This document shows positions 3,200 to 56,849 of a stretch of DNA of 64,000 nt, piece after piece. Source of the DNA: Candidatus Parcubacteria bacterium. GTDB taxonomy: Bacteria > Patescibacteriota > Minisyncoccia > Phycocordibacterales > PALSA-1337. Both the position numbers and the translations under genes were made by a program. The first letter of the stretch is position 1; every line of letters starts with the position of its first letter. The notes below the pieces were generated by a model that saw only the letters and a program-made list of their open reading frames with translations, was not told the origin of the DNA and ran no database searches. The stretch covers positions 14,740 to 78,739 of the forward strand of contig CAVYBN010000009.1 of the NCBI GenBank assembly GCA_963766795.1. The letters are read 5' to 3'.

Positions 3200-3237
3200 G
3201 AGATTTAAGGCAATTAAAATGTAAAACCATTTGCTTT

Positions 3238-3308
3238 GTCATCCCCGCGAAAGCGGGGATCCAGTGTTATCTGGTGATACTCTGGATTCCCGCTTTCGCG
3301 GGAATGAC
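3238..3308. repeat. Family C compound palindromic element, copy 1 of 4
   Basis: gtcatccccgcgaaagcggggatccag ... ctggattcccgctttcgcgggaatgac. Each arm is itself a hairpin and the two arms are mutually inverted. Confidence 0.85.
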
Positions 3309-3341
3309 AGCATCTGTCATTTTTCATTTTGATTTTGCATG

Positions 3342-9493: not shown

Positions 9494-10047
9494 GCGAAAC
9501 CGCAGTTTTCGCTGGCGGCTGCTTCTGGTGCACGGAAGCGGTCTTCTCGATGTTGAAAGGCGTCAAGTCGGTCATGTCGGGATACTCCGGCGGCAGGCCT
9601 ATGCCCGTAGGCAAGGCTCCGACGTATGAGCAAGTGTCTAATGGCGATACTGGCTACGCCGAATCATTGAAGATCGAATTTGATCCGAGCATCATCACAT
9701 ACGACGATTTGCTCGCGGTCTTCTTCAATACGCACGATCCCACGACCTTGAATCGGCAGGGCTACGATATCGGCTCCGAATATCGTTCGGCCATCTTCTA
9801 TTCGAATGAGGAGCAGAAGCACAAAGCCGAAGCTTTGATCAAGGAATTGGATGACGCCAAAGCCTACGACAAGCCAGTCGTGACCGAGGTACGACCTCTC
9901 GGAGAGTTCTACCCGGCCGAAGAATATCATCGGGATTTTTACAAGAACAACAAGGATTCGATGTATTGCGAGATCGTCATCGAGCCGAAATTGGAGAAGT
10001 TGCAGAAGAGGTTCAGCGAACTCTTGAAAGTTCAAGACGCCGCATGA
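9466..10047 (+). CDS. msrA: Peptide-methionine (S)-S-oxide reductase MsrA
   Basis: Catalytic motif AVFAGGCFWCTEAVF, then YHRDFY. 193 aa. Confidence 0.95.
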   Translation: MAEQKQEKVSETAVFAGGCFWCTEAVFSMLKGVKSVMSGYSGGRPMPVGKAPTYEQVSNGDTGYAESLKIEFDPSIITYDDLLAVFFNTHDPTTLNRQGYDIGSEYRSAIFYSNEEQKHKAEALIKELDDAKAYDKPVVTEVRPLGEFYPAEEYHRDFYKNNKDSMYCEIVIEPKLEKLQKRFSELLKVQDAA

Positions 10048-10354
10048 TGTGGAACATCCTGTTCCATTCATCCTCGAGCTCTCTCATATGGCGGCGTCCG
10101 TTTTCAGTGCGGCTAAAGCATTTGCGCGGCGCGCCAACATCGAGCTCCTCGTAATTTTTTGAGACAAGGCTTCTTGCATCAAGCGATTGGAGCGTCTTAT
10201 AAAGAGTGGTTAGCGGTATCGGCATCTTCATTTCCTTGAATTTGAGCGCAAGCTCGACGACTGGAAGCGGTTCTATGGCTATCAGCTTCAGGACGAATAA
10301 TTCGATGACGCTAGTACGAGTTATTTCTATGCGGTCAGGTTTGAGTTTGTTCAT
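10013..10354 (-). CDS. PadR-family transcriptional regulator
   Basis: 113-aa winged-helix pattern (ELFVLKLIA..PLPVVELALKF...TTLYKTLQSLDARSLV...R.CFSRTENGRR). Convergent with msrA and overlaps its 3' end by 35 nt. Confidence 0.75.
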   Translation of the reverse strand: MNKLKPDRIEITRTSVIELFVLKLIAIEPLPVVELALKFKEMKMPIPLTTLYKTLQSLDARSLVSKNYEELDVGAPRKCFSRTENGRRHMRELEDEWNRMFHIMRRLELSRVR

Positions 10355-10539
10355 GTTCTCAGTAAGTAATTCTAGTTGATAAGAACATTCATTTGTTAAT
10401 TTACAATCCGCGCAATCAGTTACTAGGAAACAATTAATAGAAGACGAGCAAGCTTTTTAAGAAGATGATTTGAAATTCTCCTTTTGGGAGAAAAAACGTC
10501 GGCAGCTAATTTGCAGTAGTCATTTCCTCTCGTTCATCT

Positions 10540-10664
10540 CACGCATTATGAAACTGGAAGTTTTGATAATAAGTAGGCGTAAAATGGCAATTCAATCCGA
10601 TTTGATGGCTAAAAATCATCGCAAAGAAGCGACTTATTATCAACTTTTCCATTTTCATTTCTCG
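10540..10664. repeat. Family G element, copy A (conserved flanks, 12-bp perfect IR TTGATAATAAGT/ACTTATTATCAA, 57-nt core)
   Basis: IR-L 10563-10574, core 10575-10631, IR-R 10632-10643. The second copy is at 56183-56307 with the core in the opposite orientation. Confidence 0.75.
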
Positions 10665-10854
10665 TGAAGCGAAAGAGAAGGAACCATCCCCATAAGGCCA
10701 TGAACCAGTCATCAATGTTCCTAATCTTAACATGAACTTCATTTCCGACACGCTCACAATGCTACACTTCCTTAAAAAGCTTCCATAAAAGCCTTCCTTT
10801 GGCAGTATGGACTCGCACCAGATTATACTATACTTGTGTAGTATGATTACAACC

Positions 10855-15424: not shown

Positions 15425-15594
15425 TTTGTCACCGCATTGCTGTTTCAAAAAGCCGCGCTGTATTTTTACGAACGCGGCTTTCGCACCTGCCAGGCGCCTT
15501 TGGGACGGTCAAAATGGAAGCTTTCCGCGGTGATCACCACATTAAGTGTTAAGGGTTATTCGACGATAACCGCCGTCAGTTTACGCTCTGGCAC

Positions 15595-15646
15595 ATTAAG
15601 AAACCTATAAGAAAAGTTAAAATAATCGTGAAGAAAAGTTAAAATT
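15595..15646 (-). repeat. Family H 52-nt motif (two TTTTAACTTTTCTT units), copy 1, inverted relative to copies 2 and 3
   Basis: The reverse complement equals aattttaacttttcttcacgattattttaacttttcttataggtttcttaat, identical to 51639-51690. Confidence 0.8.
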
Positions 15647-15710
15647 TTCGTGAAGAAAAATACGAAGGCGTAGAGCCATTGTTCTGTCTTCGCTCGCGCG
15701 TATGCCCGCC

Positions 15711-16566: not shown

Positions 16567-16641
16567 TACGAAACTGCCCCCGTACCGAAAAAGTGGCGTT
16601 TATCGCCCAGCTTTCCCGAAAGGGATAGGTACGGGGGTTTT
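16567..16641 (+). ncRNA. Candidate ~75-nt small RNA (promoter to intrinsic terminator), convergent with the DUF3800 gene
   Basis: Outer 10-bp stem cccccgtacc (16577-86) / ggtacggggg (16628-37) followed by TTTT. Inner hairpins ggcg-tttat-cgcc and tttccc-gaaa-ggga. Confidence 0.3.
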
Positions 16642-16647
16642 CGCTGC

Positions 16648-26165: not shown

Positions 26166-26364
26166 ATTTCTAATTGACCTAATTACCTAATTTCTAAGAA
26201 AATATCAAATCCCAAAAATCAAATTCCAGAAAAATCTCAATGTTCAAATTTCAAAAGTCATTGTATTATTTTGATTATTGAATTTCGGAGCTTCTCTGGA
26301 ATCTGTGATTTGAATTTTGAAATTTTAATCATTGATTGGGATTTAGAACTTTTTAGGTCAATTT
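26166..26364. repeat. Family A long AT-rich imperfect palindrome, copy 2
   Basis: tttctaattgacctaattacctaatttctaa...caaattccagaaaaatctcaa // ggagcttctctggaatctgtgatttg...ttaggtcaatt. Confidence 0.75.
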
Positions 26365-28509: not shown

Positions 28510-29457
28510 ATGAATAAGAACAAATTTATCAGCTTGGTTTGCGCGGCACTCATCGCCATTCCGGCTGTTGCCGTAGCCCAATCTGCTCCGGCAGCTGGGG
28601 ATTCCGTCTCGAGCGCGTCTGTTTCTGCCGCTCCCTCGACCGGAGGTTCTGTATCGTCCGCTTCTTCGGATTCCGCTCCGTCTACTGGCGGTTCTGTTTC
28701 CAGCGCCAGCTCCGGATCGGCTCCTTCTACCGGCGGCTCATCTTCGTCTGCTAGTTCAGGTTCAGCTCCTTCTACCGGCGGATCTGTTTCCAGCGCCGGA
28801 CAGGGAGCTTCACCCGTCACTCCCGCTCCGACACCGACCCCTGCCGGCGGCTCTTCCGGCTCTTCCGGTTCCAGCGGTTCTTACTCCGGCGGCGGTTCGT
28901 ACGGCGGCTACTCTTCCGGTGGATCGTCGGTGGTTCCGGTTGCCGGCTTCTGCCCGTTCGTGAGCGATCTCATGAGCCCCGGCGCTTCTAACGACGCTGT
29001 CCAAGTCTCCAAGCTCCAGGCTTTCCTCAAAGACACCGAGGGATACGATGTCGACGTGAACGGGGCTTTCGACCGGAAGACCGAGGCCGCCGTCATCGCC
29101 TTCCAGACCAAGTATATGTCCGACATCATGGGCCCTTGGGGCGCCACCAAAGCTTCCGGCACGGTCTATCTCACCACACTGAAAAAGATCAATGAGATCG
29201 CTTGCAGCACGGCTCTCAATCTGACCGTCTCCGATCTCGCGATCATCAACGCTTACAAGCAGGGCAATTCAGCCTCGGCCGTTTCCGGAACGGTCGGCGT
29301 GAATCAGAATGCGAATAGCGTCGTCGCTGTCGGTTCCGCTGTCACCGCTTCTACTTCAGGCTCTGACATTCTCTCCACCGGCAATCCGAACGTCGCCGCC
29401 GTCGGTCAAGCTTCCATCTTTACCCGCTTCTGGAATTTCCTGAAGAGTTTGTTCTAA
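28510..29457 (+). CDS. Secreted protein with a Ser-rich tandem repeat and a peptidoglycan-binding (PG_binding_1-like) domain
   Basis: Signal peptide. About 4 tandem 16-aa units APSTGGSVSSASSGS (48-bp period, about 28630-28800). Then VSKLQAFLKDTEGYDVDVNGAFDRKTEAAVIAFQTKY. Confidence 0.7.
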   Translation: MNKNKFISLVCAALIAIPAVAVAQSAPAAGDSVSSASVSAAPSTGGSVSSASSDSAPSTGGSVSSASSGSAPSTGGSSSSASSGSAPSTGGSVSSAGQGASPVTPAPTPTPAGGSSGSSGSSGSYSGGGSYGGYSSGGSSVVPVAGFCPFVSDLMSPGASNDAVQVSKLQAFLKDTEGYDVDVNGAFDRKTEAAVIAFQTKYMSDIMGPWGATKASGTVYLTTLKKINEIACSTALNLTVSDLAIINAYKQGNSASAVSGTVGVNQNANSVVAVGSAVTASTSGSDILSTGNPNVAAVGQASIFTRFWNFLKSLF

Positions 29458-29461
29458 TCAT

Positions 29462-29548
29462 AAAAATCTCAAATTCCAAAGATCAAATTCCAGAGAAGCT
29501 CCAAATCTCAAAGATCAATTAATATATGTATCTTTGAAATTTGAAATC
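29462..29548. repeat. Family A element, short copy 3
   Basis: aaaaatctcaaattccaaagatcaaattccagagaagctccaaatctcaaagatcaa ... tctttgaaatttgaaatc. Confidence 0.6.
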
Positions 29549-30852
29549 TAGCATGTTCCTAACTGCTTGGTGCCATGCGCCCGGATCCGCCAGCTGGCGG
29601 AACCGGGCGTTTTGGCATCCAAATGATGCAATGCGCCGGCCACGGCTATCATCAGGGCATTATCGCCGGATATGTGGCGAGATGGCAGGAATATAGGGAT
29701 CCCATATTCTGCCGCGGTCTTTTCGAACCTTTGTCGGAGCATATGATTGGCGCTGACGCCGCCGCCGACGATGATCGACTGCGCGCCGGACTTCTCGACG
29801 GCCGTGCGCAGCTTGCCGTCGAGCGTGTCGGCCACGGCCTGCTCGAATTCACGGGCCAGGCCTTTTTTGAAATCGTCAGTCAGCTCAAAATGATCGGTCG
29901 TCGAAGGGGGAGTCGCTGCTTTTTGGATCGCCGCGTCTCGCACGGCATAGAGCACGGCCGTCTTCAGGCCTGCGAATGAGAAATCCAGATCGCCGCTTTT
30001 GAGCATCGGACGAGGGAGTTTGACCGGCGAAGAGATCTTTTCTTCCCAGGCTTTGTGCGACAATTCAGCCAAATGCGGTCCGCCCGGATATGGCAACCCG
30101 AGCAATCGTGCCGCCTTGTCGAAGGCTTCGCCCACCGCGTCATCTTTTGTCCGGCCTAGAATCTCGTAATCGCCGAGCTTCGAGACCTTCACCAATTCCG
30201 TATGCCCGCCGCTGATGAGCAAGGCAACGGCTGGTAAGGGAGCGTCATAGAGCCCTTGCCAGACGCCATTGGCAACGTCTGACGGCAATAACGATCCAAG
30301 GATGTGTCCCTCCATATGGTCGACCGGAATGATAGGCACTTCCCAGAGCGCCGCGAGCATCCGGGCAAAATTGATGCCCACCCAGAGCGTCGGTTCCAAG
30401 CCCGGCCCTTCGGTCACGGCAATGCGGTCTATCGGTGGTATGGTTTTCAGAAAATCAGCGCCGGCGAACGATTCGAATAATTCAGGATTCTGCCGCTCCA
30501 CGTCTGCACGGAAAGATTCGAGTATGGCTTTGAATTGAAGATCAGTGAGTGGATTCTCAGAGGTCGGACCTCCGTCCGGATGACCCCTAGGTCCGACCTC
30601 GGAAAATCCGCCGCCTTCAATAAGCAGCTTGTGAAGCAGCGGCACGATATTCTTGCCGTGCTCGCGCTTGGCCAGAGTAGGGAAGACGCCGCCGTAAGCG
30701 CTGTGCAGTTCCGCCTGCGAATGCACCAGCGACTGTATGACGCGGCATTCGAGCCGGCCGCCGCTTCCGTCAGCGGTAGCTCCATGTCCGCGAGTTTCAA
30801 TAAGAGCCAGCGCCGTCTCATCGCATGAAGTCTCGATGCCGAGGATGATCAT
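29548..30852 (-). CDS. tsaD: tRNA N6-adenosine threonylcarbamoyltransferase TsaD (expanded, about 434 aa)
   Basis: ILGIETSCDETALALIE, HMEGHIL, LLISGGHTELV, IIVGGGVSAN. ATG at 30852 preferred. It carries a large internal insertion that includes a REP doublet. Confidence 0.9.
   Translation of the reverse strand: MIILGIETSCDETALALIETRGHGATADGSGGRLECRVIQSLVHSQAELHSAYGGVFPTLAKREHGKNIVPLLHKLLIEGGGFSEVGPRGHPDGGPTSENPLTDLQFKAILESFRADVERQNPELFESFAGADFLKTIPPIDRIAVTEGPGLEPTLWVGINFARMLAALWEVPIIPVDHMEGHILGSLLPSDVANGVWQGLYDAPLPAVALLISGGHTELVKVSKLGDYEILGRTKDDAVGEAFDKAARLLGLPYPGGPHLAELSHKAWEEKISSPVKLPRPMLKSGDLDFSFAGLKTAVLYAVRDAAIQKAATPPSTTDHFELTDDFKKGLAREFEQAVADTLDGKLRTAVEKSGAQSIIVGGGVSANHMLRQRFEKTAAEYGIPIFLPSRHISGDNALMIAVAGALHHLDAKTPGSASWRIRAHGTKQLGTC
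29586..29601. repeat. 16-bp palindrome TCCGCCAGCTGGCGGA (perfect)
   Basis: Lies in the TsaD C-terminal tail and is read as G-SASWR-I. Confidence 0.95.
30560..30600. repeat. REP doublet (family B, GAGGTCGGACCT core) lying in frame inside tsaD
   Basis: gaggtcggacctc (30560-72) and aggtccgacctc (30589-600) are inverted. Translated as ..EVGPRGHPDGGPTSE.. within a TsaD insertion. Confidence 0.8.
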
Positions 30853-42406: not shown

Positions 42407-42500
42407 AGAGAGCACAGGATAGCATGGAATAATTGGGAGCGCAAATGCCAGCTGGGGTATCGTGGCGATGGCTCTAGGCCATCGTATTTTTCTTAATAAA

Positions 42501-42552
42501 GATTTTAACAAATATTCACGACTATTTTAACTTTTCTTTAAGGTTTCTTTAA
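42501..42552 (+). repeat. Family H motif, copy 2 (diverged), ending 7 nt upstream of the MazF-like ORF
   Basis: gattttaacaaatattcacgactattttaacttttctttaaggtttctttaac. Confidence 0.65.
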
Positions 42553-42559
42553 CTCATTT

Positions 42560-45949: not shown

Positions 45950-45999
45950 AGTGCGGCTATTGTAGGCTAAAAAATTGCTTTACGCAAGTTTTTTGTCTT

Positions 46000-46082
46000 G
46001 TCATCCCCGCGAAAGCGGGGATCCAGGGTTTTAATATTTTATCAGTGTTTCGACCCTGGATTCCGGCTTTCGCCGGAATGAC
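46000..46082. repeat. Family C compound palindromic element, copy 2
   Basis: gtcatccccgcgaaagcggggatccagg ... ccctggattccggctttcgccggaatgac. Confidence 0.85.
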
Positions 46083-46515
46083 AGAGTTTAAATTTGATAT
46101 TTGAAGTTTGTGATTCGGTGCTTGCAGGCAATATGCAGATGTGAAAGAATTGATGTGGCAAATTGAACCGCTCTTCCAAGAGCACAAAAATTAAATAAGC
46201 CTATGAATACTTCAAGTCAGACTCAGCCGATAAGTTCAAAGCTACGCCGACATGGCGTAGTCGCTATTCACACCGAAGGTGATACGTTAACGGAGGCTGG
46301 GCAAGATGCTCTTGCTTCAGTCTATGACGCGATGCAACCTGCCTTGACAAGTGAACTTGCCCGAACTGATGAACCTGAATGCCCCGAAGATCCTCGCGTT
46401 CCCAGGTTCGATTGACGGGCTCAATCGTTCTTCGTTTTCCAAGCTCTTTCACAACCCTCCCTTCACCGGGAGGACTTTTTTGCCTTTTCAATCAAAAAGA
46501 CATATCATAGTCGCC

Positions 46516-49350: not shown

Positions 49351-50340
49351 GGAGAGGTATCCCCGCACGGCCTAATTTGCTGATAGAATTACCGCATGGC
49401 CAGGTCATCCAAATACGGGATCCGCGAGCTTCACCGCGATTTTCCGACGAACAAGGCCTGTCTCGAATTCATATTTGATTCGCTTCATACCCGCAGATGT
49501 TCATGCGGCGGTACCTATGCTCTTCGCAATGAGCGCAAAAAATTTCAATGCGGCAGGTGCCGTTCCGAGATCGCCCCGGCCGTCGGTACGGTATTCGAGA
49601 AATCATCGACTCCGTTCGTGCTCTGGTTCCACGCTCTCATGGTTTTCTCCAATGCCAAAAGCGGCGTCTCGGCCAAGCAATTGGAGCGTCACTTGGCCGT
49701 CACATACAAGTGCGCATGGAGGATCCTCCACGAGATCAGAACCTCGCTGAAGCAAGGCATTAAAAGGCTTGTCGGTGATGTTGAAACCGATGGGGCGTAC
49801 TTTGGCGGCAGAAAGACCGGTCCAAAAGACGGAAAGCGGCTCAGGGAGGCCTTCGAGAGGAAATCCAAGGCCATGGCAGCCGTCGAACGAGGCGGGGACA
49901 TGCGAGCCAAGACGGTCATTGGAATGGGAACGGCGCCGACCGGCGATTTCGTTCTCCGTCATATCGAGCCCGGAACGCGCCTCATGACCGACAAGAGCAA
50001 CACATTCGTCAAAGTCGGAAGGCTGTATGATCATCATGCCGTGGACCATCACCGGAAGGAGTATGTCCGCGGGGACGTTCACGTCAACACGGTCGAATCG
50101 TTCTGGTCGCACGTCAAGCGGAGCGTTGCCGGGACGCACAAGGGCGTTTCGAAACAGCATTTGGAGGAGTACCTAAACGGCTTTGTTTTCCACTACAACA
50201 ACCGGAGCAACGACAGGAAACGCTTCCTGACCTTGCTTGATATCGTATTACGCGCCTCAAAAGCGCAAGAAATTCCGCTCTCTTCACGCAACAAAGTATA
50301 TATCAATTCAGCAAATTAGGCCGTGCGGGGATACCTCTGA
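49351..50340 (+). mobile_element. IS1595-family insertion sequence (about 990 bp)
   Basis: Perfect 31-bp terminal IRs, agaggtatccccgcacggcctaatttgctga (49353-83) and its reverse complement (50308-38). TTTTCT lies at both outer flanks (49345-50 and 50341-46). Single transposase ORF. Confidence 0.85.
49396..50319 (+). CDS. IS1595-family (ISXO2-like) DDE transposase with an N-terminal zinc ribbon
   Basis: CSCGG...CGRC zinc ribbon, VETDGAYFGG, LMTDKSNTF, HHAVDHHRKEYVRGDVHVNTVESFWSHVKR. Confidence 0.85.
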   Translation: MARSSKYGIRELHRDFPTNKACLEFIFDSLHTRRCSCGGTYALRNERKKFQCGRCRSEIAPAVGTVFEKSSTPFVLWFHALMVFSNAKSGVSAKQLERHLAVTYKCAWRILHEIRTSLKQGIKRLVGDVETDGAYFGGRKTGPKDGKRLREAFERKSKAMAAVERGGDMRAKTVIGMGTAPTGDFVLRHIEPGTRLMTDKSNTFVKVGRLYDHHAVDHHRKEYVRGDVHVNTVESFWSHVKRSVAGTHKGVSKQHLEEYLNGFVFHYNNRSNDRKRFLTLLDIVLRASKAQEIPLSSRNKVYINSAN

Positions 50341-51104: not shown

Positions 51105-51140
51105 TATGATTATAACGGTTGATTAGAAGACAATCGCCGT

Positions 51141-51272
51141 AAATTCCAAAGACCAAATATCAAATTCCAGAAAAGCTCCAAATTTCAATGATCAAACAGC
51201 ATATGAATTTTTGGAATTTGGGTTTTGAGATTTATCTGGAATTTGTGATTTGAAATTTAAGATTTTAATCGC
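51141..51272. repeat. Family A element, copy 4
   Basis: aaattccaaagaccaaatatcaaattccagaaaagctccaaatttcaa // tttggaatttgggttttgagatttatctggaatttgtgatttgaaattt. Confidence 0.7.
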
Positions 51273-51292
51273 CAATCTTTCAATTAATTATC

Positions 51293-51595
51293 ATGAGCTT
51301 CGCAACCTATATCGAAAACCTGCGCGCCAAGCCGGAGCATGAGCGCAAGCGCTTCGCATTCTGGTCGTCGCTCTGCTTCACGGCGATCATCGCCGCGTTC
51401 TGGCTGGCTTCGTTCACCGGCATCAATATCGGCGCGGAAAGCGCCGTCAGCTCCGCCGTCGCCAAAGCCGGCACGCCGGCGCAATCGTTGGTAGCCGGAG
51501 TCGGCGCATTCGGCGGCGATGTCTGGACGATGTTGACCGGTCCCAAGAAGATCAGCTACGCCGAGATACAGGTCTCGCCGGGGAAATCCCACTGA
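51293..51595 (+). CDS. Small membrane protein, hypothetical
   Basis: 100 aa with one TM (FAFWSSLCFTAIIAAFWLASF). Confidence 0.5.
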   Translation: MSFATYIENLRAKPEHERKRFAFWSSLCFTAIIAAFWLASFTGINIGAESAVSSAVAKAGTPAQSLVAGVGAFGGDVWTMLTGPKKISYAEIQVSPGKSH

Positions 51596-51620
51596 GGTCG
51601 GACCTACGTAGGTCGGACCT
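51594..51620. repeat. REP (family B) tandem half-sites upstream of the RAYT gene
   Basis: gaggtcggacct-acgt-aggtcggacct. Confidence 0.8.
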
Positions 51621-51638
51621 ATGCATCGAGATTAAGGA

Positions 51639-51690
51639 AATTTTAACTTTTCTTCACGATTATTTTAACTTTTCTTATAGGTTTCTTAAT
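51639..51690 (+). repeat. Family H motif, copy 3
   Basis: aattttaacttttcttcacgattattttaacttttcttataggtttcttaat. Identical to the reverse complement of 15595-15646. Confidence 0.8.
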
Positions 51691-51707
51691 CACCCATCTG
51701 ATACTCT

Positions 51708-51734
51708 GAGGTCGGACCTACGGAGGTCCGACCT
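51708..51734. repeat. REP hairpin ending at the RAYT start codon
   Basis: gaggtcggacct-acgg-aggtccgacct, then ATG at 51735. Confidence 0.8.
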
Positions 51735-52295
51735 ATGTATTACCATGTGTACAACCGAGGAGCTCACAAGGCGCCAATATTTCTGGAACCTCAAGATTAT
51801 CAGAGATTCTTGAGACTTTTATATATTTCCAACAGCACGAGATCTTTCATGACTAGGGATTTTGCTGACAGCTCCATATTCACTGCTGATCGAGGGAAAA
51901 ACATCGTATCAATAGCTGCCTATTGTCTTATGCCAAATCACTTCCATATTGTCCTCGAGGAAAACGATGGATGCGGAATGACAAAATTTATGCGTAAGTT
52001 ATGTACCGGATATTCAATGTATTACAACAAAAAATATAAGCATTCCGGCACGATCTTTCAAGGAAAATATAAGTCAAAGTCAGTGATTGACGATGTCTAT
52101 TTTCAAGTTCTTATGAATTATGTGCACTTGAATCCATTCGGTATAGAGGAACCGATGCTTATGAAATCGACATATACAGAACATTTTAAAGAAGCCTTTG
52201 CAGCCTCAAGTAAATACGAATATTCAAGTCTAAAGGATTATTTAGGAGAAAATCGCCCTCAAAAAGTCATTCTCGCCGAGGTCCGACCTACGTAG
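51735..52295 (+). CDS. REP-associated tyrosine transposase (RAYT; IS200-like Y1 HUH transposase)
   Basis: 186 aa. HUH motif CLMPNHFHIVLEE, then SGTIFQGKYKSK, then catalytic-Tyr region NYVHLNP. Confidence 0.85.
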   Translation: MYYHVYNRGAHKAPIFLEPQDYQRFLRLLYISNSTRSFMTRDFADSSIFTADRGKNIVSIAAYCLMPNHFHIVLEENDGCGMTKFMRKLCTGYSMYYNKKYKHSGTIFQGKYKSKSVIDDVYFQVLMNYVHLNPFGIEEPMLMKSTYTEHFKEAFAASSKYEYSSLKDYLGENRPQKVILAEVRPT

Positions 52296-52305
52296 GTCGG
52301 ACCTC
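52278..52305. repeat. REP, perfect 28-bp palindrome overlapping the RAYT stop codon
   Basis: gaggtccgacctacgtaggtcggacctc is its own reverse complement. Confidence 0.9.
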
Positions 52306-52376
52306 GAGGGTAATATAAAACCCCCGCGGCCGGTTTGACGCGGCGCGCGGGGATGGGGAAAGTGGGGGAACGCAAT

Positions 52377-52863: not shown

Positions 52864-53036
52864 GTCGCTTACTCGCCTCTTTTTTGCTATATAGATGACT
52901 ATATAGCAATTTCACTCGGACATTGAGCAAATGTAATTTGCCCATGATCCTCGTTCATTGCTATAATTAAACAGTAAAAAGGTGCGGTTGTGAGGGCTTT
53001 TTCTTTTTGCAATCAGGTAAGGGTATAGGGGCTGGT

Positions 53037-53123
53037 GTCATCCCCGCGAAAGCGGGGATCCAGGGTCAGACCACAGATATCGAAAGAGGTGATACACTGG
53101 ATTCCCGCGTGCGCGGGAATGAC
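53037..53123. repeat. Family C compound palindromic element, copy 3
   Basis: gtcatccccgcgaaagcggggatccagg ... cactggattcccgcgtgcgcgggaatgac. Confidence 0.85.
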
Positions 53124-53212
53124 AAAAAATCTTTCCTTACTGATTTCCAATCCCAATTTGGTTCCAATCTCTGATTCTGAATTCCTGTACCCTGTATTCT
53201 GAACCCTAATTC

Positions 53213-55767
53213 ATGGCCAAAAAATCCGACAACAACCCAGAGCCAGTTGCACCAATCAGAGCTGAAGGCGCCGGCATCATCGCGCGCTCGATCACGACCG
53301 AGATGCGCGAATCATTCCTCGACTACGCCATGTCGGTCATCACCGACCGCGCATTTGCCGGACGTGCGCGACGGCTTGAAGCCGGTGCATCGCCGCATCC
53401 TCTATGCCATGCACGAGAAGGGTCTGACGTTCCAGGCGAAGTTCCGCAAGTCCGCGGTCGTCGTCGGTGACGTCTTGGGCAATTATCACCCGCACGGCGA
53501 TGTGGCCGTCTATGAATCCATGGTCAAGATGGCGCAGGACTTCACCATGCGCTATCCCTTGATTCAAGGCCAAGGAAACTTCGGCACGGTCGACGGCGAC
53601 TCTGCGGCTGCCATGCGCTACACCGAAGCCAAGATGTCGCGATTGGCGTCAGAGCTGCTGCAAAGACATCGACAAGAATACCGTGGATTTCCGGCCGAAC
53701 TATGACGGCACCAAGAAAGAGCCGTCGGTCCTGCCGACCGCCGTTCCAAACCTGCTCCTGAATGGCACGCTCGGCATCGCCGTCGGCATGGCCACCAACA
53801 TCGCTCCGCACAATCTCGGCGAAGTCGTGGACGCCAGCGTCCATCTCATCGACAATCCAGAAGCTTCGACCGATGACCTCTGCCAATTCATCAAAGGCCC
53901 GGATTTTCCGCTCGGCGCCGTCATTTACGGCGAGAAGGATATTCGGCATGCCTATGCTACCGGCCGCGGCGGCATGACCGTGCGCGGCGAAGCCGAGATC
54001 ACCGAAGACAAGAAGGGCATGTACCAGATCATCATCACCTCCATCCCATTCAGCGTCAACAAGAGCGAGCTCATCATCAAGATCGCCGACTTGGTCCGCG
54101 AGAAAGACATCGAAGGCGTCAAGGCTCTTGCGCGACGAATCAGACAAGGAGCTCCGCATCGTCATTGACCTGAAGCAAGGCTCATACCCGGAAAAAGTCC
54201 TCAATCTTCTGTACAAGCACACGCAATTGGAAGAGACTTTCCATATGAATACGTTGGCGTTGGTCCACGGCGTGCCGCAGACATCTGTCATTGAAATCGA
54301 TCCTGCAGGAATTCGTCACGCATCGCATCGAAGTCATCCGCCGCCGCACCAAGTTCGATCTCGACGCCGCCGAAGCGCGCGAGCACATTTTGCTCGGCTT
54401 GAAGAAAGCCCTTGACCACATAGACGAGATCATCACGCTCATCCGCGCTTCCGCCGATGTCGCCGACGCCAAGGCCGGCTTGATGAAGAAATTCAAGTTC
54501 AGCGACCTTCAGGCGACTGCGATCCTTGAAATGCGCTTGCAGAAGCTGGCAGGTCTCGAACGCAAGAAAGTCCTCGATGAATTGAAAGAAGTGCAGGCGC
54601 TTATCGAAGATTTGAAGGGTATTCTTGGCTCGGAGAAGCGCGTGCGTACCATCATCAAGACCGAGCTTGCCGACATCAAGACGAAATATGGAGACGAGCG
54701 TCGCACAAAAATCGTCAAGCATGGCGTCAAGGAATTCAGCGTCGAGGATCTCATCGCCGACGAGGAGTCGGTGCTGGTCCTCACCAAGGGCGGCTACATC
54801 AAGCGCACCGATCCCGGCGAATATCGCAAACAGAAGCGCGGCGGCGTCGGCGTCGTCGATCTTGATACAAAGGAGGAGGATTTCATATCGCATCTGATCT
54901 TCGCCACGACTCACAACGACCTCCTGTTCTTCACCGACAAAGGCAAGGCCTATCAGCTCAAGATGTTCGAGATCCCCGAAGGCAAGCGCGCCACCAAGGG
55001 CAAATCCATCATGAATTTCCTGTCATTGGCGGAAGGCGAGCGCGTGACTTCGATCTTGCCTATGCCCCACGAATAAGAAGGAGGCTGAAGGATTGTCGCT
55101 CATGATGGTGACTAAGAATGGCACTGGCAAGAAATCGTCAGCCGCTCATTTCAAGGATGTGCGCCGCTCGGGATTGATCGCGATCACTCTCGATCCAGGC
55201 GACGAATTGATCTCCGTCTCATTCGTGTCCAAGTCGGATGAAGTCGTCATCGCCACCAAGGAAGGGCAGTCGATCCACTTCAAAGAGTCTGATGTTAGAG
55301 AGATGGGCAGGAATGCGGCAGGGGTTAGAGTGATCAAATTGGCGGAAATAAAAGAAGCTAGGAGCTCGAAGCTAGGAGCTAGTAGCAAATCTTCCAGCTC
55401 CAAGCTCCCAGCTCCAAGCTCCGATTGTGTCATCTCCGCCGACGTAGTTTCCAAAGACGCCAAGAATCCGGCATTATTCGTCATGAGCTCCAACGGCTAC
55501 GGCAAGAAGACCAAGCTCTCCGAATACAAAGTCCAAGGACGCGGCGGTTCCGGCATCCTGACCATGAATGTCACGCCCAAGACCGGCTCGCTCATGGCCG
55601 CCAAAGTCGTCACCGACGATGTCGAGGAGGTCGTGGCTATGTCCAAGAAATCCCAAGTCATCCGCGTTGCCCTCACAGAGATCCCAGCCTTGTCCCGCGC
55701 CACTCAAGGCGTGCGCGTCATGAAGCTCCGCGACGGCGACCAGCTGGCGAGCTTGATCTGTTTGTAA
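53213..55767 (+). pseudogene. gyrA: DNA gyrase subunit A, reading frame interrupted five times (each break repaired by removing one base)
   Basis: Six track ORFs concatenate to a full GyrA ([11 protein letters not shown]|[19 protein letters not shown]...YHPHGD...|[14 protein letters not shown]...|RDESDKELRIVIDLK...|LKSILQEFVTHRIEVIRRR...|KKEAEGLSLMMVTKNG...). Breaks are at about 53354-56, 53662-64, 54130, 54285 and 55074. Confidence 0.9.
55354..55422. repeat. Family D (GAAGCT/GGAGCT-unit) hairpin block lying in frame in the GyrA C-terminal domain
   Basis: gaagctaggagctcgaagctaggagctag - tagcaaatctt - ccagctccaagctcccagctccaagctcc. Translated as EARSSKLGASSKSSSSKLPAPSS. Confidence 0.7.
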
Positions 55768-55773
55768 GATACA

Positions 55774-56127
55774 ATGCCGAATAATCAAATTTCCATTAAG
55801 TTTGCGGCAGAATTAGTGCCGCTTGTTAAAAACGGGGCAAAGACATTGACATACCGGCTCGGTAACAAATTCGACTTTCTTTCTGAGGGTGATAGAGTTA
55901 ATGTCGCTGATGATGAAGGAATAGTCTTTGCAAAAGTCCGAATTCTCGAAAAGACCAGAACTGCATTTAAGTATCTGCCATTTGATAGATCAGGCCACGA
56001 AACATATAAATCTACTAAAGATATGGCAGAAGTCTTTGAAAGATATTATGGCAGAAAGATCGATCCCCAAGAGAGCGTCATTGTTTTGAAATACGAGCTG
56101 GTAGGGAATATTAAATGTGAACGTTAA
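55774..56127 (+). CDS. ASCH-domain protein
   Basis: 117 aa. ISIKFAAELVPLVKNGAKTLTYRL...GDRVNV pattern of the ASCH/PUA-like fold. Confidence 0.65.
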   Translation: MPNNQISIKFAAELVPLVKNGAKTLTYRLGNKFDFLSEGDRVNVADDEGIVFAKVRILEKTRTAFKYLPFDRSGHETYKSTKDMAEVFERYYGRKIDPQESVIVLKYELVGNIKCER

Positions 56128-56182
56128 CCACAAAACCCGCCTGCCTGACGGTAGACAGGCGGGGGTGTGGTGTTCTTTTATC

Positions 56183-56307
56183 CACGCATTATGAAACTGG
56201 AAGATTTGATAATAAGTCGAGAGATTTCTTCGGATGATAGCCATGTTTCGGTTAAATTATCCACATTTTAGACGACTTATTATCAAAATTTCTAATTTCA
56301 AAAATCG
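56183..56307. repeat. Family G element, copy B (core inverted relative to copy A)
   Basis: IR-L 56206-56217, core 56218-56274, IR-R 56275-56286. Left flank cacgcattatgaaactggaag is identical to copy A. Confidence 0.75.
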
Positions 56308-56456
56308 TCGTTGCGGACAGAGGAGCCAGAGCGCAACGTCAAGTCGGATGAATTCCAGCGGACAAAACCTTTGAGACCTATTATTTGATTGTGCTTTTTG
56401 TCATAACCACAAAACCCGCCTGACTGCCAGCAGGCGGGCCGGAGCGGGTGATTAGT

Positions 56457-56849
56457 TTACAAAGCAAAGAACTTTTTAAGTTGCTCTTTGATCTCAGCGA
56501 GCTTCTTTTCCGAGATCCGGCCTTTACGCGAGAGCACTCTCTTTTGAGAGACTGTCCGAGATTGGTGGACGCATAGGGAAACGGTCCTTCCTTGAAATTC
56601 AAAAGGCAAATAGCCGGCCACTTCTTTGACGCTGGTTGAAAGCGGAACGACCAAGGCCAAATTAGATCCAATGACATGAATGATCAGAGCTGGCCGAGTG
56701 AAAGTCTTTCCTTTTCCGTCGATCTCGCTTCCGATATTCACGCCGAAAGCGACCCAGCGGACTTCTCCGGCACGGATATTGACGCGTCTATCGTCAGAAT
56801 TAAGATGCTTTTGCATCTCATTCCAATTGTCAAAATCTTTAATGTACAT
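56457..56849 (-). CDS. PemK/MazF-family toxin-like protein, no adjacent antitoxin ORF
   Basis: 130 aa. GEVRWVAFGVNIGSEIDGKGKTFTRPALIIHV...VVPLST. Paralogous in pattern to the 42560 ORF. Confidence 0.72.
   Translation of the reverse strand: MYIKDFDNWNEMQKHLNSDDRRVNIRAGEVRWVAFGVNIGSEIDGKGKTFTRPALIIHVIGSNLALVVPLSTSVKEVAGYLPFEFQGRTVSLCVHQSRTVSQKRVLSRKGRISEKKLAEIKEQLKKFFAL

Follow-up and report, generated by a model that had tools for sequence, protein, structure and literature searches.

Background

MITEs of the Correia, ERIC and RUP type are non-coding units of 100-160 bp with terminal inverted repeats, which are scattered in intergenic DNA, are present or absent between relatives, and can form long RNA hairpins and carry promoter-like boxes. 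REPINs are REP doublets that form hairpins and are mobilised by RAYT Y1 transposases; a genome has many of them, and its single-copy RAYT gene is flanked by the same REP. In a REPIN, two inverted REPs enclose a less conserved, hairpin-forming spacer, and the conserved REP sequences tabulated for SBW25 are 16 bp long (PMC3337134). The reversal of short segments is also described: plastid non-coding DNA has hairpin-associated small inversions of 4-50 bp (PMC12371153), and the quasi-palindromes of E. coli mutate by template switching (PMC7202029). Invertons, finally, are invertible promoters driven by an invertase. In one curated set, over 75% of them have a length below 300 bases (PMC11602134).

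Here we analyse an element that is present twice in a stretch of 64,000 nucleotides (the window), with its centre in opposite polarity in the two copies, A and B. The reading that we favour, with about an even chance of being right, is that A and B are paralogs, both of them copies of a discrete intergenic repeat of about 127 nt which forms a hairpin and is built like a REPIN or MITE, and that the polarity of the centre is an old, fixed event and not a switch.

Two copies of the element in the window

Copy A (10540..10666) and copy B (56183..56309), neither of which is assigned a strand, are both imperfect palindromes of 127 nt with the ends CACG...CGTG. The former lies between padR and msrB, the latter between an ASCH-domain gene and a MazF/PemK toxin gene. 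As the original prediction had it, they share an identical left flank: the 21-nt CACGCATTATGAAACTGGAAG occurs exactly twice in the window, at 10540 and 56183, and no further site with up to three mismatches is found in the whole window, nor in shuffled sequences. The left arm of A (10540..10574) consists of this flank, 2 nt and the 12-nt inner repeat TTGATAATAAGT, and the right arm (10632..10666) of ACTTATTATCAA followed by the right flank. A pattern search of the window finds TTGATAATAAGT and its complement at the four arm positions only. The left arms of A and B are identical at 34/35 positions, and within the left arm there is a small dyad, TTATGAAA-N8-TTTGATAA, which is found nowhere else in the window. 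Both cores are indeed 57 nt long, as had been claimed. The core of A (10575..10631, plus strand) carries the conserved blocks TAAAATG (10580) and ATGGCTA (10605), and the core of B (56218..56274, minus strand), mirrored with respect to that of A, carries TAGCCAT (56238) and CATTTTA (56264).

The inner repeat is perfect in all three copies at hand, with 12 nt in A and 14-15 nt in B and in the ortholog A' described below, and mismatches occur in the outer arms. The perfect 12-nt repeat thus agrees with the original prediction, but its extension is not confined to about 20 bp: the inverted repeat has arms of 52 nt in A (73% complementary) and of 36 nt in B (81%), so that what had been taken as flanks is the outer part of the palindrome's own arms. 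In A, a putative outward extension of the left arm (10523..10539) may pair with 10667-10683. The right flanks, taken before to be similar, are shared in part, with only 14/24 positions alike between A and B; that of B matches the complement of the left flank (17/23) better than it matches the right flank of A. In all orientations compared, the similarity of A and B ends at the boundaries of the unit of about 127 nt. Neither copy has a target-site duplication, A being preceded by CATCT and followed by AAGCG, and B by TTATC and GTTGC.

Further copies were looked for by pattern search, by BLAST and by a covariance model, R1, built from the three sequences A, A' and B, which scores copy A with 152 bits and copy B with 134 bits. 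By all three, the count suggested as a check on the original prediction stays at two in the 64-kb window, with no third copy there, and A' alone is found in about 105 kb of related loci. Partial arm matches are not found elsewhere in the window. The exact pattern of the left flank and arm has no match in the public genome and metagenome contig collections, and BLAST against the phage and plasmid collections finds no match to the element. Pattern scans of the viral collections return nothing, or chance matches (L020 and L021). Two matches to the paired-arms pattern are also chance matches, one (L002) being a Bacteroides terminator hairpin and the other (L003) a site within a 1308-aa ORF.

Comparison with known repeat families

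The element is like a REPIN in that its two conserved inverted arms are each an imperfect small palindrome and fold into a hairpin, with a less conserved spacer some tens of bases long between them, and in that it is intergenic and without target duplication (PMC3337134). Besides, a Y1/RAYT-like gene is present in the window. However, this gene is flanked by another palindrome (GGTCGGACC...) and not by the element, and R1 detects no copy of the element at the gene (51735-52295). Other differences are that only two copies of the element are seen in 64 kb, that its arms have about 35 nt against the 16-bp REPs of SBW25 (PMC3337134), and that its spacer carries conserved polar blocks. As for MITEs, the ends CACG...CGTG and the arms of about 35 nt correspond to terminal inverted repeats, and copy B is absent from a relative (L022, see below). 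Unlike in MITEs, there is no target-site duplication at the element, nor any IS with matching ends, those of the IS1595 element in the window (AGAGGTATCCCCGCACGG...) being unrelated. Because the palindrome of the Y1 gene differs and no IS ends match, we do not assign the element to REPINs or to MITEs; it would work like a hairpin repeat of the REPIN/MITE type without being a member of either family.

Several other repeats and genes of interest are seen in the window. A complete IS1595-family insertion sequence (49353-50338) has perfect 31-nt terminal inverted repeats, AGAGGTATCCCCGCACGGCCTAATTTGCTGA, and a DDE transposase ORF of 307 aa (49396-50319; PF12762, E = 5e-34). The Y1/IS200-like transposase ORF at 51735-52295 (PF01797, E = 8.5e-10) has REP-like palindromes, CTGAGGTCGGACCTACGTAGGTCGGACCT, on its flanks at 51592, 51706 and 52276 (region 51592-52310), which are also found at 30558 and 59607; together they resemble a RAYT and its REPs, here in a genome that is Patescibacteria-like. 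A dispersed family of repeats of about 80-110 nt (15570-15679, 42468-42554 and 51638-51715), with 84-85% identity and in both orientations, has one copy abutting the Y1 transposase. AT-rich intergenic repeats with a periodicity of about 7 nt (TTTTGAA/TTTGGAA...) lie in both orientations around many genes, for example at 490-680, 26196-26363, 29456-29543 and 51137-51286, and a GC hairpin module, GTCATCCCCGCGAAAGCGGGGATCCAG, occurs at 3230-3312, 45992-46083, 53029-53124 and 59029-59068, often in inverted pairs. Rfam identifies a DUF3800-IX RNA (RF02968) at 16576-16642 on the plus strand, with 51.6 bits, which exceeds the gathering score of 36.8. For the tRNA at 32674-32748 (plus strand), ARAGORN gives an odd 4-nt anticodon 'gatc' (tRNA-???), while Rfam finds a normal tRNA with 62.5 bits.

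Genomic context and conservation

The annotations of neighbouring genes and the best MazF matches indicate a Patescibacteria- or Paceibacterota-like organism of the candidate phyla radiation. The neighbours of copy A are padR (10013-10354, minus strand) and the divergently transcribed msrB (CDS from about 10855, plus strand). A homologue of the PadR protein with 88% identity is found on the ENA contig L004 and on the Logan contig L005, and the padR-msrB intergenic region of L004 contains the ortholog A', whose core has the orientation of A in both assemblies. When the window is compared with L004, 34/35 positions agree in the left arm, 36/36 in the right arm (10632-10667) and 42/57 in the core, with identities of 91% for the padR CDS, 88% for the msrB CDS, 80% for the msrA CDS and 44-70% for other intergenic DNA. 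The arms (70/71) are thus more conserved than the core (Fisher p = 1.7e-5) and more conserved than the pooled CDS of padR, msrA and msrB (p = 3e-4), which suggests that the arms are the part of the element that is under strong constraint or being homogenised. The sole arm substitution between A and A' falls at an unpaired position. Except in two or three blocks, the rate at which the core evolves is close to that of neutral DNA.

Some features near A are observed in addition. About 45 nt to its left, in a block conserved with L004, there is a hairpin TTCTCC-N5-GGAGAA (10479-10495), which on the minus strand is followed by TTTCAAAT and so makes a weak terminator-like site. Genes of diversity-generating retroelements (DGRs; RVT_1 and bAvd) adjoin msrA in L004 (11254-12459) and a MazF homologue in L006 (6399-7743), and the window has only about 330 nt at the site equivalent to that of L004. 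A link of the element to DGRs is rejected, the RT and Avd genes near these two loci being insertions that are absent from the window.

Copy B lies between two convergent genes, the ASCH-domain gene (55774-56127, plus strand) and the MazF/PemK toxin gene (56457-56849, minus strand). It is bracketed by two hairpins that are terminator-like on the minus strand: T1 (56127..56170), a GC-rich hairpin ACCACAAAACCCGCCTG...CAGGCGGG at 13 nt from B, and T2 (56406..56445), a direct-repeat copy of T1 with a period of 279 nt, which terminates mazF. In the locus L022, with a methyltransferase at least 90% identical and the shared order gyrA ... methyltransferase ... SBP ... pilin, the interval equivalent to that of B holds a different gene and is without the ASCH gene, the element and the MazF gene; the whole interval differs, so it is not a clean empty site. 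The element is also not found at the loci of MazF homologues with 87-91% identity (L006-L014 and L019), for which reason an association with MazF is rejected. Since the interval of L022 differs and the loci of close MazF homologues are without the element, B sits in variable, accessory DNA. The locus of the ASCH homologue (L015-L017) is not syntenic.

Two observations concern the genes around B. The MazF/PemK gene has no obvious antitoxin ORF upstream, and its homologues, 85-91% identical, are found in many different Patescibacteria contexts, so that the gene is mobile. In the window, an additional T at 55063 splits the C-terminal region of gyrA into the ORFs 54291-55076 and 55093-55767. The Logan contig L018, identical apart from this, lacks the T and has a continuous gyrA; the split is likely an assembly indel or a recent frameshift.

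Hairpin fold and possible functions

Folded as RNA, copy A has -31.6 kcal/mol (z = -4.2) and copy B -36.2 kcal/mol (z = -5.3). On either strand the fold is an interrupted stem of about 30 bp, with z from -3.0 to -5.3, and in A and B that of the plus strand (z -4.2 to -5.3) is slightly better than that of the minus strand. On the whole, 87/90 arm cells of A, A' and B are paired, and a G-U pair is kept in all three copies on the plus strand, with a second one in B. The folding and covariance analysis that had been proposed thus yields a stable hairpin but no covariation in the stem, because 26/30 pairs never vary among A, A' and B; covariation thus offers no proof that the pairing itself is selected. 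The outer extension of A, which makes up its 52-nt arms, is paired in the MFE fold of A and not in that of A'. An extension of the outer stem with compensatory changes between A and A' was dropped for this, as the MFE fold of A' does not reproduce it.

These folds could belong to a family of structured small RNAs or cis-acting RNA hairpins with two paralogs, in which the long stem would be functional, for example as a dsRNA substrate or a protein-binding platform, and the apical 57 nt would tolerate either polarity. We regard this as rather unlikely, and it overlaps with the repeat reading, since a repeat can also be transcribed. The stable plus-strand folds and the conserved G-U pairs would fit an RNA, as would arms frozen between orthologs with their only substitution at an unpaired base; however, an RNA with conserved apical blocks should not tolerate the reversal of its apical domain, and the stem is without covariation. 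Copy B stands between two terminator-like hairpins, as might be expected of an independent unit, yet no convincing promoter is found before either copy and no terminator after A on the plus strand, and B is absent from the close syntenic relative L022. Neither copy has a relevant match in a covariance search of Rfam 15 (including 6S, Y RNA and SRP), the sole match to the element being the plant miRNA hairpin MIR7807 with 33 bits against a gathering score of 90. The families of 6S RNA, Y RNA and other RNAs are rejected, having no Rfam support.

It is improbable that the element serves as a pair of operators for a DNA-binding regulator, for instance the adjacent PadR, where each arm would form a dyad of about 24 bp and the phasing would be set by the 57-bp spacer. 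The place of A between the divergently transcribed padR and msrB would suit a regulator, but the genes on either side of B are convergent, which leaves it nothing to regulate, and no padR is close to it. The left arm does hold the dyad, which however occurs nowhere else in the window, and the right arm of B is degenerate. The spacer is exactly 57 nt in A, A' and B despite the indels in the alignment of A and B, and conservation is at the level of the sequence, without covariation, both of which count in favour of this reading. The arm motif, however, seems unlike the PadR operators of the ATGT-N8-ACAT type.

A coding role is rejected for the two kinds of short ORFs in the element. The ORFs beginning with MKLE, whose sharing had been thought possibly coincidental, have only 39 aa in A, 26 aa in B and 18 aa in A' and agree only where they overlap the conserved arm, of which they are a by-product. 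A mini-ORF, MAKN...HFS*, starts at ATGGCTA and is in frame in A and A', with four non-synonymous changes against one synonymous, without a ribosome-binding site and without a stop in B. The conserved polar blocks of the core, its length of 57 nt and this poorly conserved in-frame mini-ORF are not explained by a pure 'spacer' view.

The mirrored core

The original prediction stated that core B aligns to the reverse complement of core A and not to core A itself, and that a direct alignment as good or better would speak against it. The global alignment of core B with the reverse complement of core A has 40 matches and a score of 7, while the direct orientation scores -8. Against dinucleotide-preserving shuffles, the reverse complement reaches p = 0.002-0.004 and the direct orientation p = 0.39-0.48; for core A' in reverse complement against core B, p = 0.025-0.03. 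As an independent statistic, we counted the bases covered by exact 6-mers whose offsets mirror each other to within 2 nt; there are 14 for the reverse complement and 0 for the direct orientation, with p = 0.002 for A and 0.00075 for A'. Across the tests, the direct orientation carries no signal (p 0.39-1.0). In A as in B, the distance of TAGCCAT/ATGGCTA to one arm is exactly 20 nt, and that of TAAAATG/CATTTTA to the opposite arm is 5 or 4 nt. The break points of the mirrored interior fall at the perfect inner repeat. Overall, the claim is borne out by alignment, shuffles and mirrored 6-mers: with the one arm that A and B share identically as the reference, the interior is indeed mirrored, and the mirrored homology of the two cores is very probably real, as judged from these comparisons.

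There is accordingly little room left for the reading without inversion, in which the core is merely hypervariable and the similarity of A and B in reverse complement is due to chance in AT-rich sequence; we give it a slim chance. The mirrored pattern was found post hoc, the local alignments are weaker (p 0.01-0.2 for A and 0.29-0.45 for A'), and conservation between A and A' is no more frequent at the bases of core A that match B than at the others (Fisher p = 0.48). Against this reading, two independent statistics agree at p of about 0.001-0.004 with the signal repeated by the ortholog A', two exact 7-mers stand at mirrored offsets within 1 nt, and the direct orientation is empty.

Is the element a switch?

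The same evidence had been taken to indicate recombination or template switching across the inverted repeat, as in a flip/flop element or inverton at work. The break points at the inner repeat fit the former, but a working switch is not what we find. Every locus has one orientation in the assemblies, that of A in the window and in L001 (100% identical over A), that of A' in L004 and L005, and that of B in the window and in L018 (99.93% identical over B, with three differences, all outside B), this evidence coming from consensus contigs and so being blind to a minority orientation. L001 and L018 are Logan contigs of the same strain and are collinear with the window over A and B. A' keeps the orientation of A although the neighbouring genes differ by 9-20% in DNA. 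As to the linked invertase suggested for checking, a Pfam scan finds no serine or tyrosine recombinase among the 40 ORFs of the window, where the IS1595 DDE transposase and the Y1 (IS200/RAYT-like) transposase are the only mobility genes, and there is none in the gene calls of the 20-kb related locus L004 either. The inversion event would be old, because the cores of A and B differ by about 30%. We infer that one old event, now fixed, gave the centre its opposite polarity in A and B, with no present-day toggling.

An active mini-inverton would need a recombinase encoded elsewhere that flips the 57-bp core across the inner repeats of 12-14 bp; a promoter would take its -10 (TAAAAT) from the core and its -35 from whichever arm is upstream, and would be directed to msrB in A and to T1 in B. 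Such an active inverton is very unlikely. Like invertons, the element has inverted repeats flanking a short segment with a -10-like box, and its size would be in line with the curated set mentioned above; the inner repeat is perfect in three copies whose outer arms have mismatches, and the core is mirrored cleanly at this repeat. Unlike invertons, it has no evidence of two states at one locus, no recombinase in the window or in L004, and no complete promoter in the segment. TAAAATG next to the arm is conserved in A, A' and B, but in A the -35 candidate of the TAAAAT box matches at 3/6 positions with a spacing of 19 nt and is not called by the promoter scan on the plus strand. A role of this box as a promoter toward msrB also finds no support from the side of the gene, msrB having its own promoter-like site (10799..10826, plus strand; TTGGCA-16-GATTAT), which is conserved in L004 and lies about 130 nt downstream of A, outside the element. 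On the minus strand of B the scan does call a 9/12 promoter, TAGAAA-18-TAAAAT, with the -35 in the arm; however, it would fire into the terminator T1 with no gene behind. Judged from known invertase systems, 57 bp is very short for recombinase synapsis.

A related version, in which recombination is independent of a recombinase or uses one in trans, the core holds only a -10 and a start (TAAAAT ... ATGGCTA), the arms give a -35 on either side, and a flip redirects transcription to left or right with A and B as the two states, seems to us slightly less likely still. Finally, the view of A and B as the attL/attR pair of a 45-kb insert is rejected, since housekeeping genes (aspS, ftsZ, pheS, tRNAs) lie between the two copies and the palindrome is complete in the ortholog.

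Origin of the mirrored centre and implications

For the hairpin-forming repeat that we favour, the picture would be one of two conserved arms of about 35 nt, each with a small internal dyad, inverted around a less conserved 57-nt spacer, where the arms would be the recognised part, either as a hairpin of ssDNA or RNA or as paired protein-binding sites. Two routes might lead to the mirrored centre. In the first, the spacer would have been inverted across the perfect inner repeat of 12-14 nt, by intramolecular recombination or by template switching in the hairpin during replication, a mechanism which has also been put forward for the small plastid inversions (PMC12371153) and for the correction of quasi-palindromes in E. 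coli (PMC7202029). In the second, the whole quasi-palindromic unit would have been inserted in opposite orientation, and its left arm would then have been converted or selectively retained; flanks that are themselves palindromic would allow for this route. If both arms are counted, the two orientations of B are about equally close to A, with 60 and 57 of 71 arm positions alike. There is nevertheless a real asymmetry: where the arms are unpaired, A and B are identical at 6/7 positions in the left arm and at 0/7 in the right arm, so either route needs a constraint specific to the left arm or a recent conversion tract.

An origin mediated by the inverted repeat is plausible. In plastid inversions and in the quasi-palindromes of E. 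coli, a short segment bounded by a hairpin-forming inverted repeat is likewise found reversed, with no recombinase required (PMC12371153, PMC7202029), and the mirrored offsets of the blocks show that the reversed segment of the element is bounded exactly by its hairpin-forming repeat. The plastid inversions differ in being 4-50 bp long, against 57 bp, and in flipping recurrently between close relatives, while the two states of the element are found in paralogs and the ortholog A' is unflipped.

Some points tell against the reading as a repeat. There are only three sequences behind the family, two paralogs and one ortholog, and neither a target-site duplication nor a matching autonomous element. 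The strong conservation of the arms at the orthologous site argues for a function at the level of the host, which a 'selfish repeat' alone does not explain. The polar blocks (TAAAATG and ATGGCTA) and the fixed length of 57 nt suggest that the centre is more than a spacer, and the asymmetry of the left and right arms needs the extra assumption of a strand-specific constraint or gene conversion.

We find nothing in the literature on MITEs or palindromic repeats in Patescibacteria. The element does not by itself open a long-standing question. If our reading is right, it would stand for a family of hairpin repeats that has not been described before, in a group as little studied as the Patescibacteria, and some factor must read the arms, because they are held tighter than the adjacent protein-coding genes. 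It would also show clearly, for a bacterium, that the spacer of a hairpin can become fixed in either polarity, and such mirrored spacers can mislead alignment-based comparisons as well as inverton predictors that work from sequence only.
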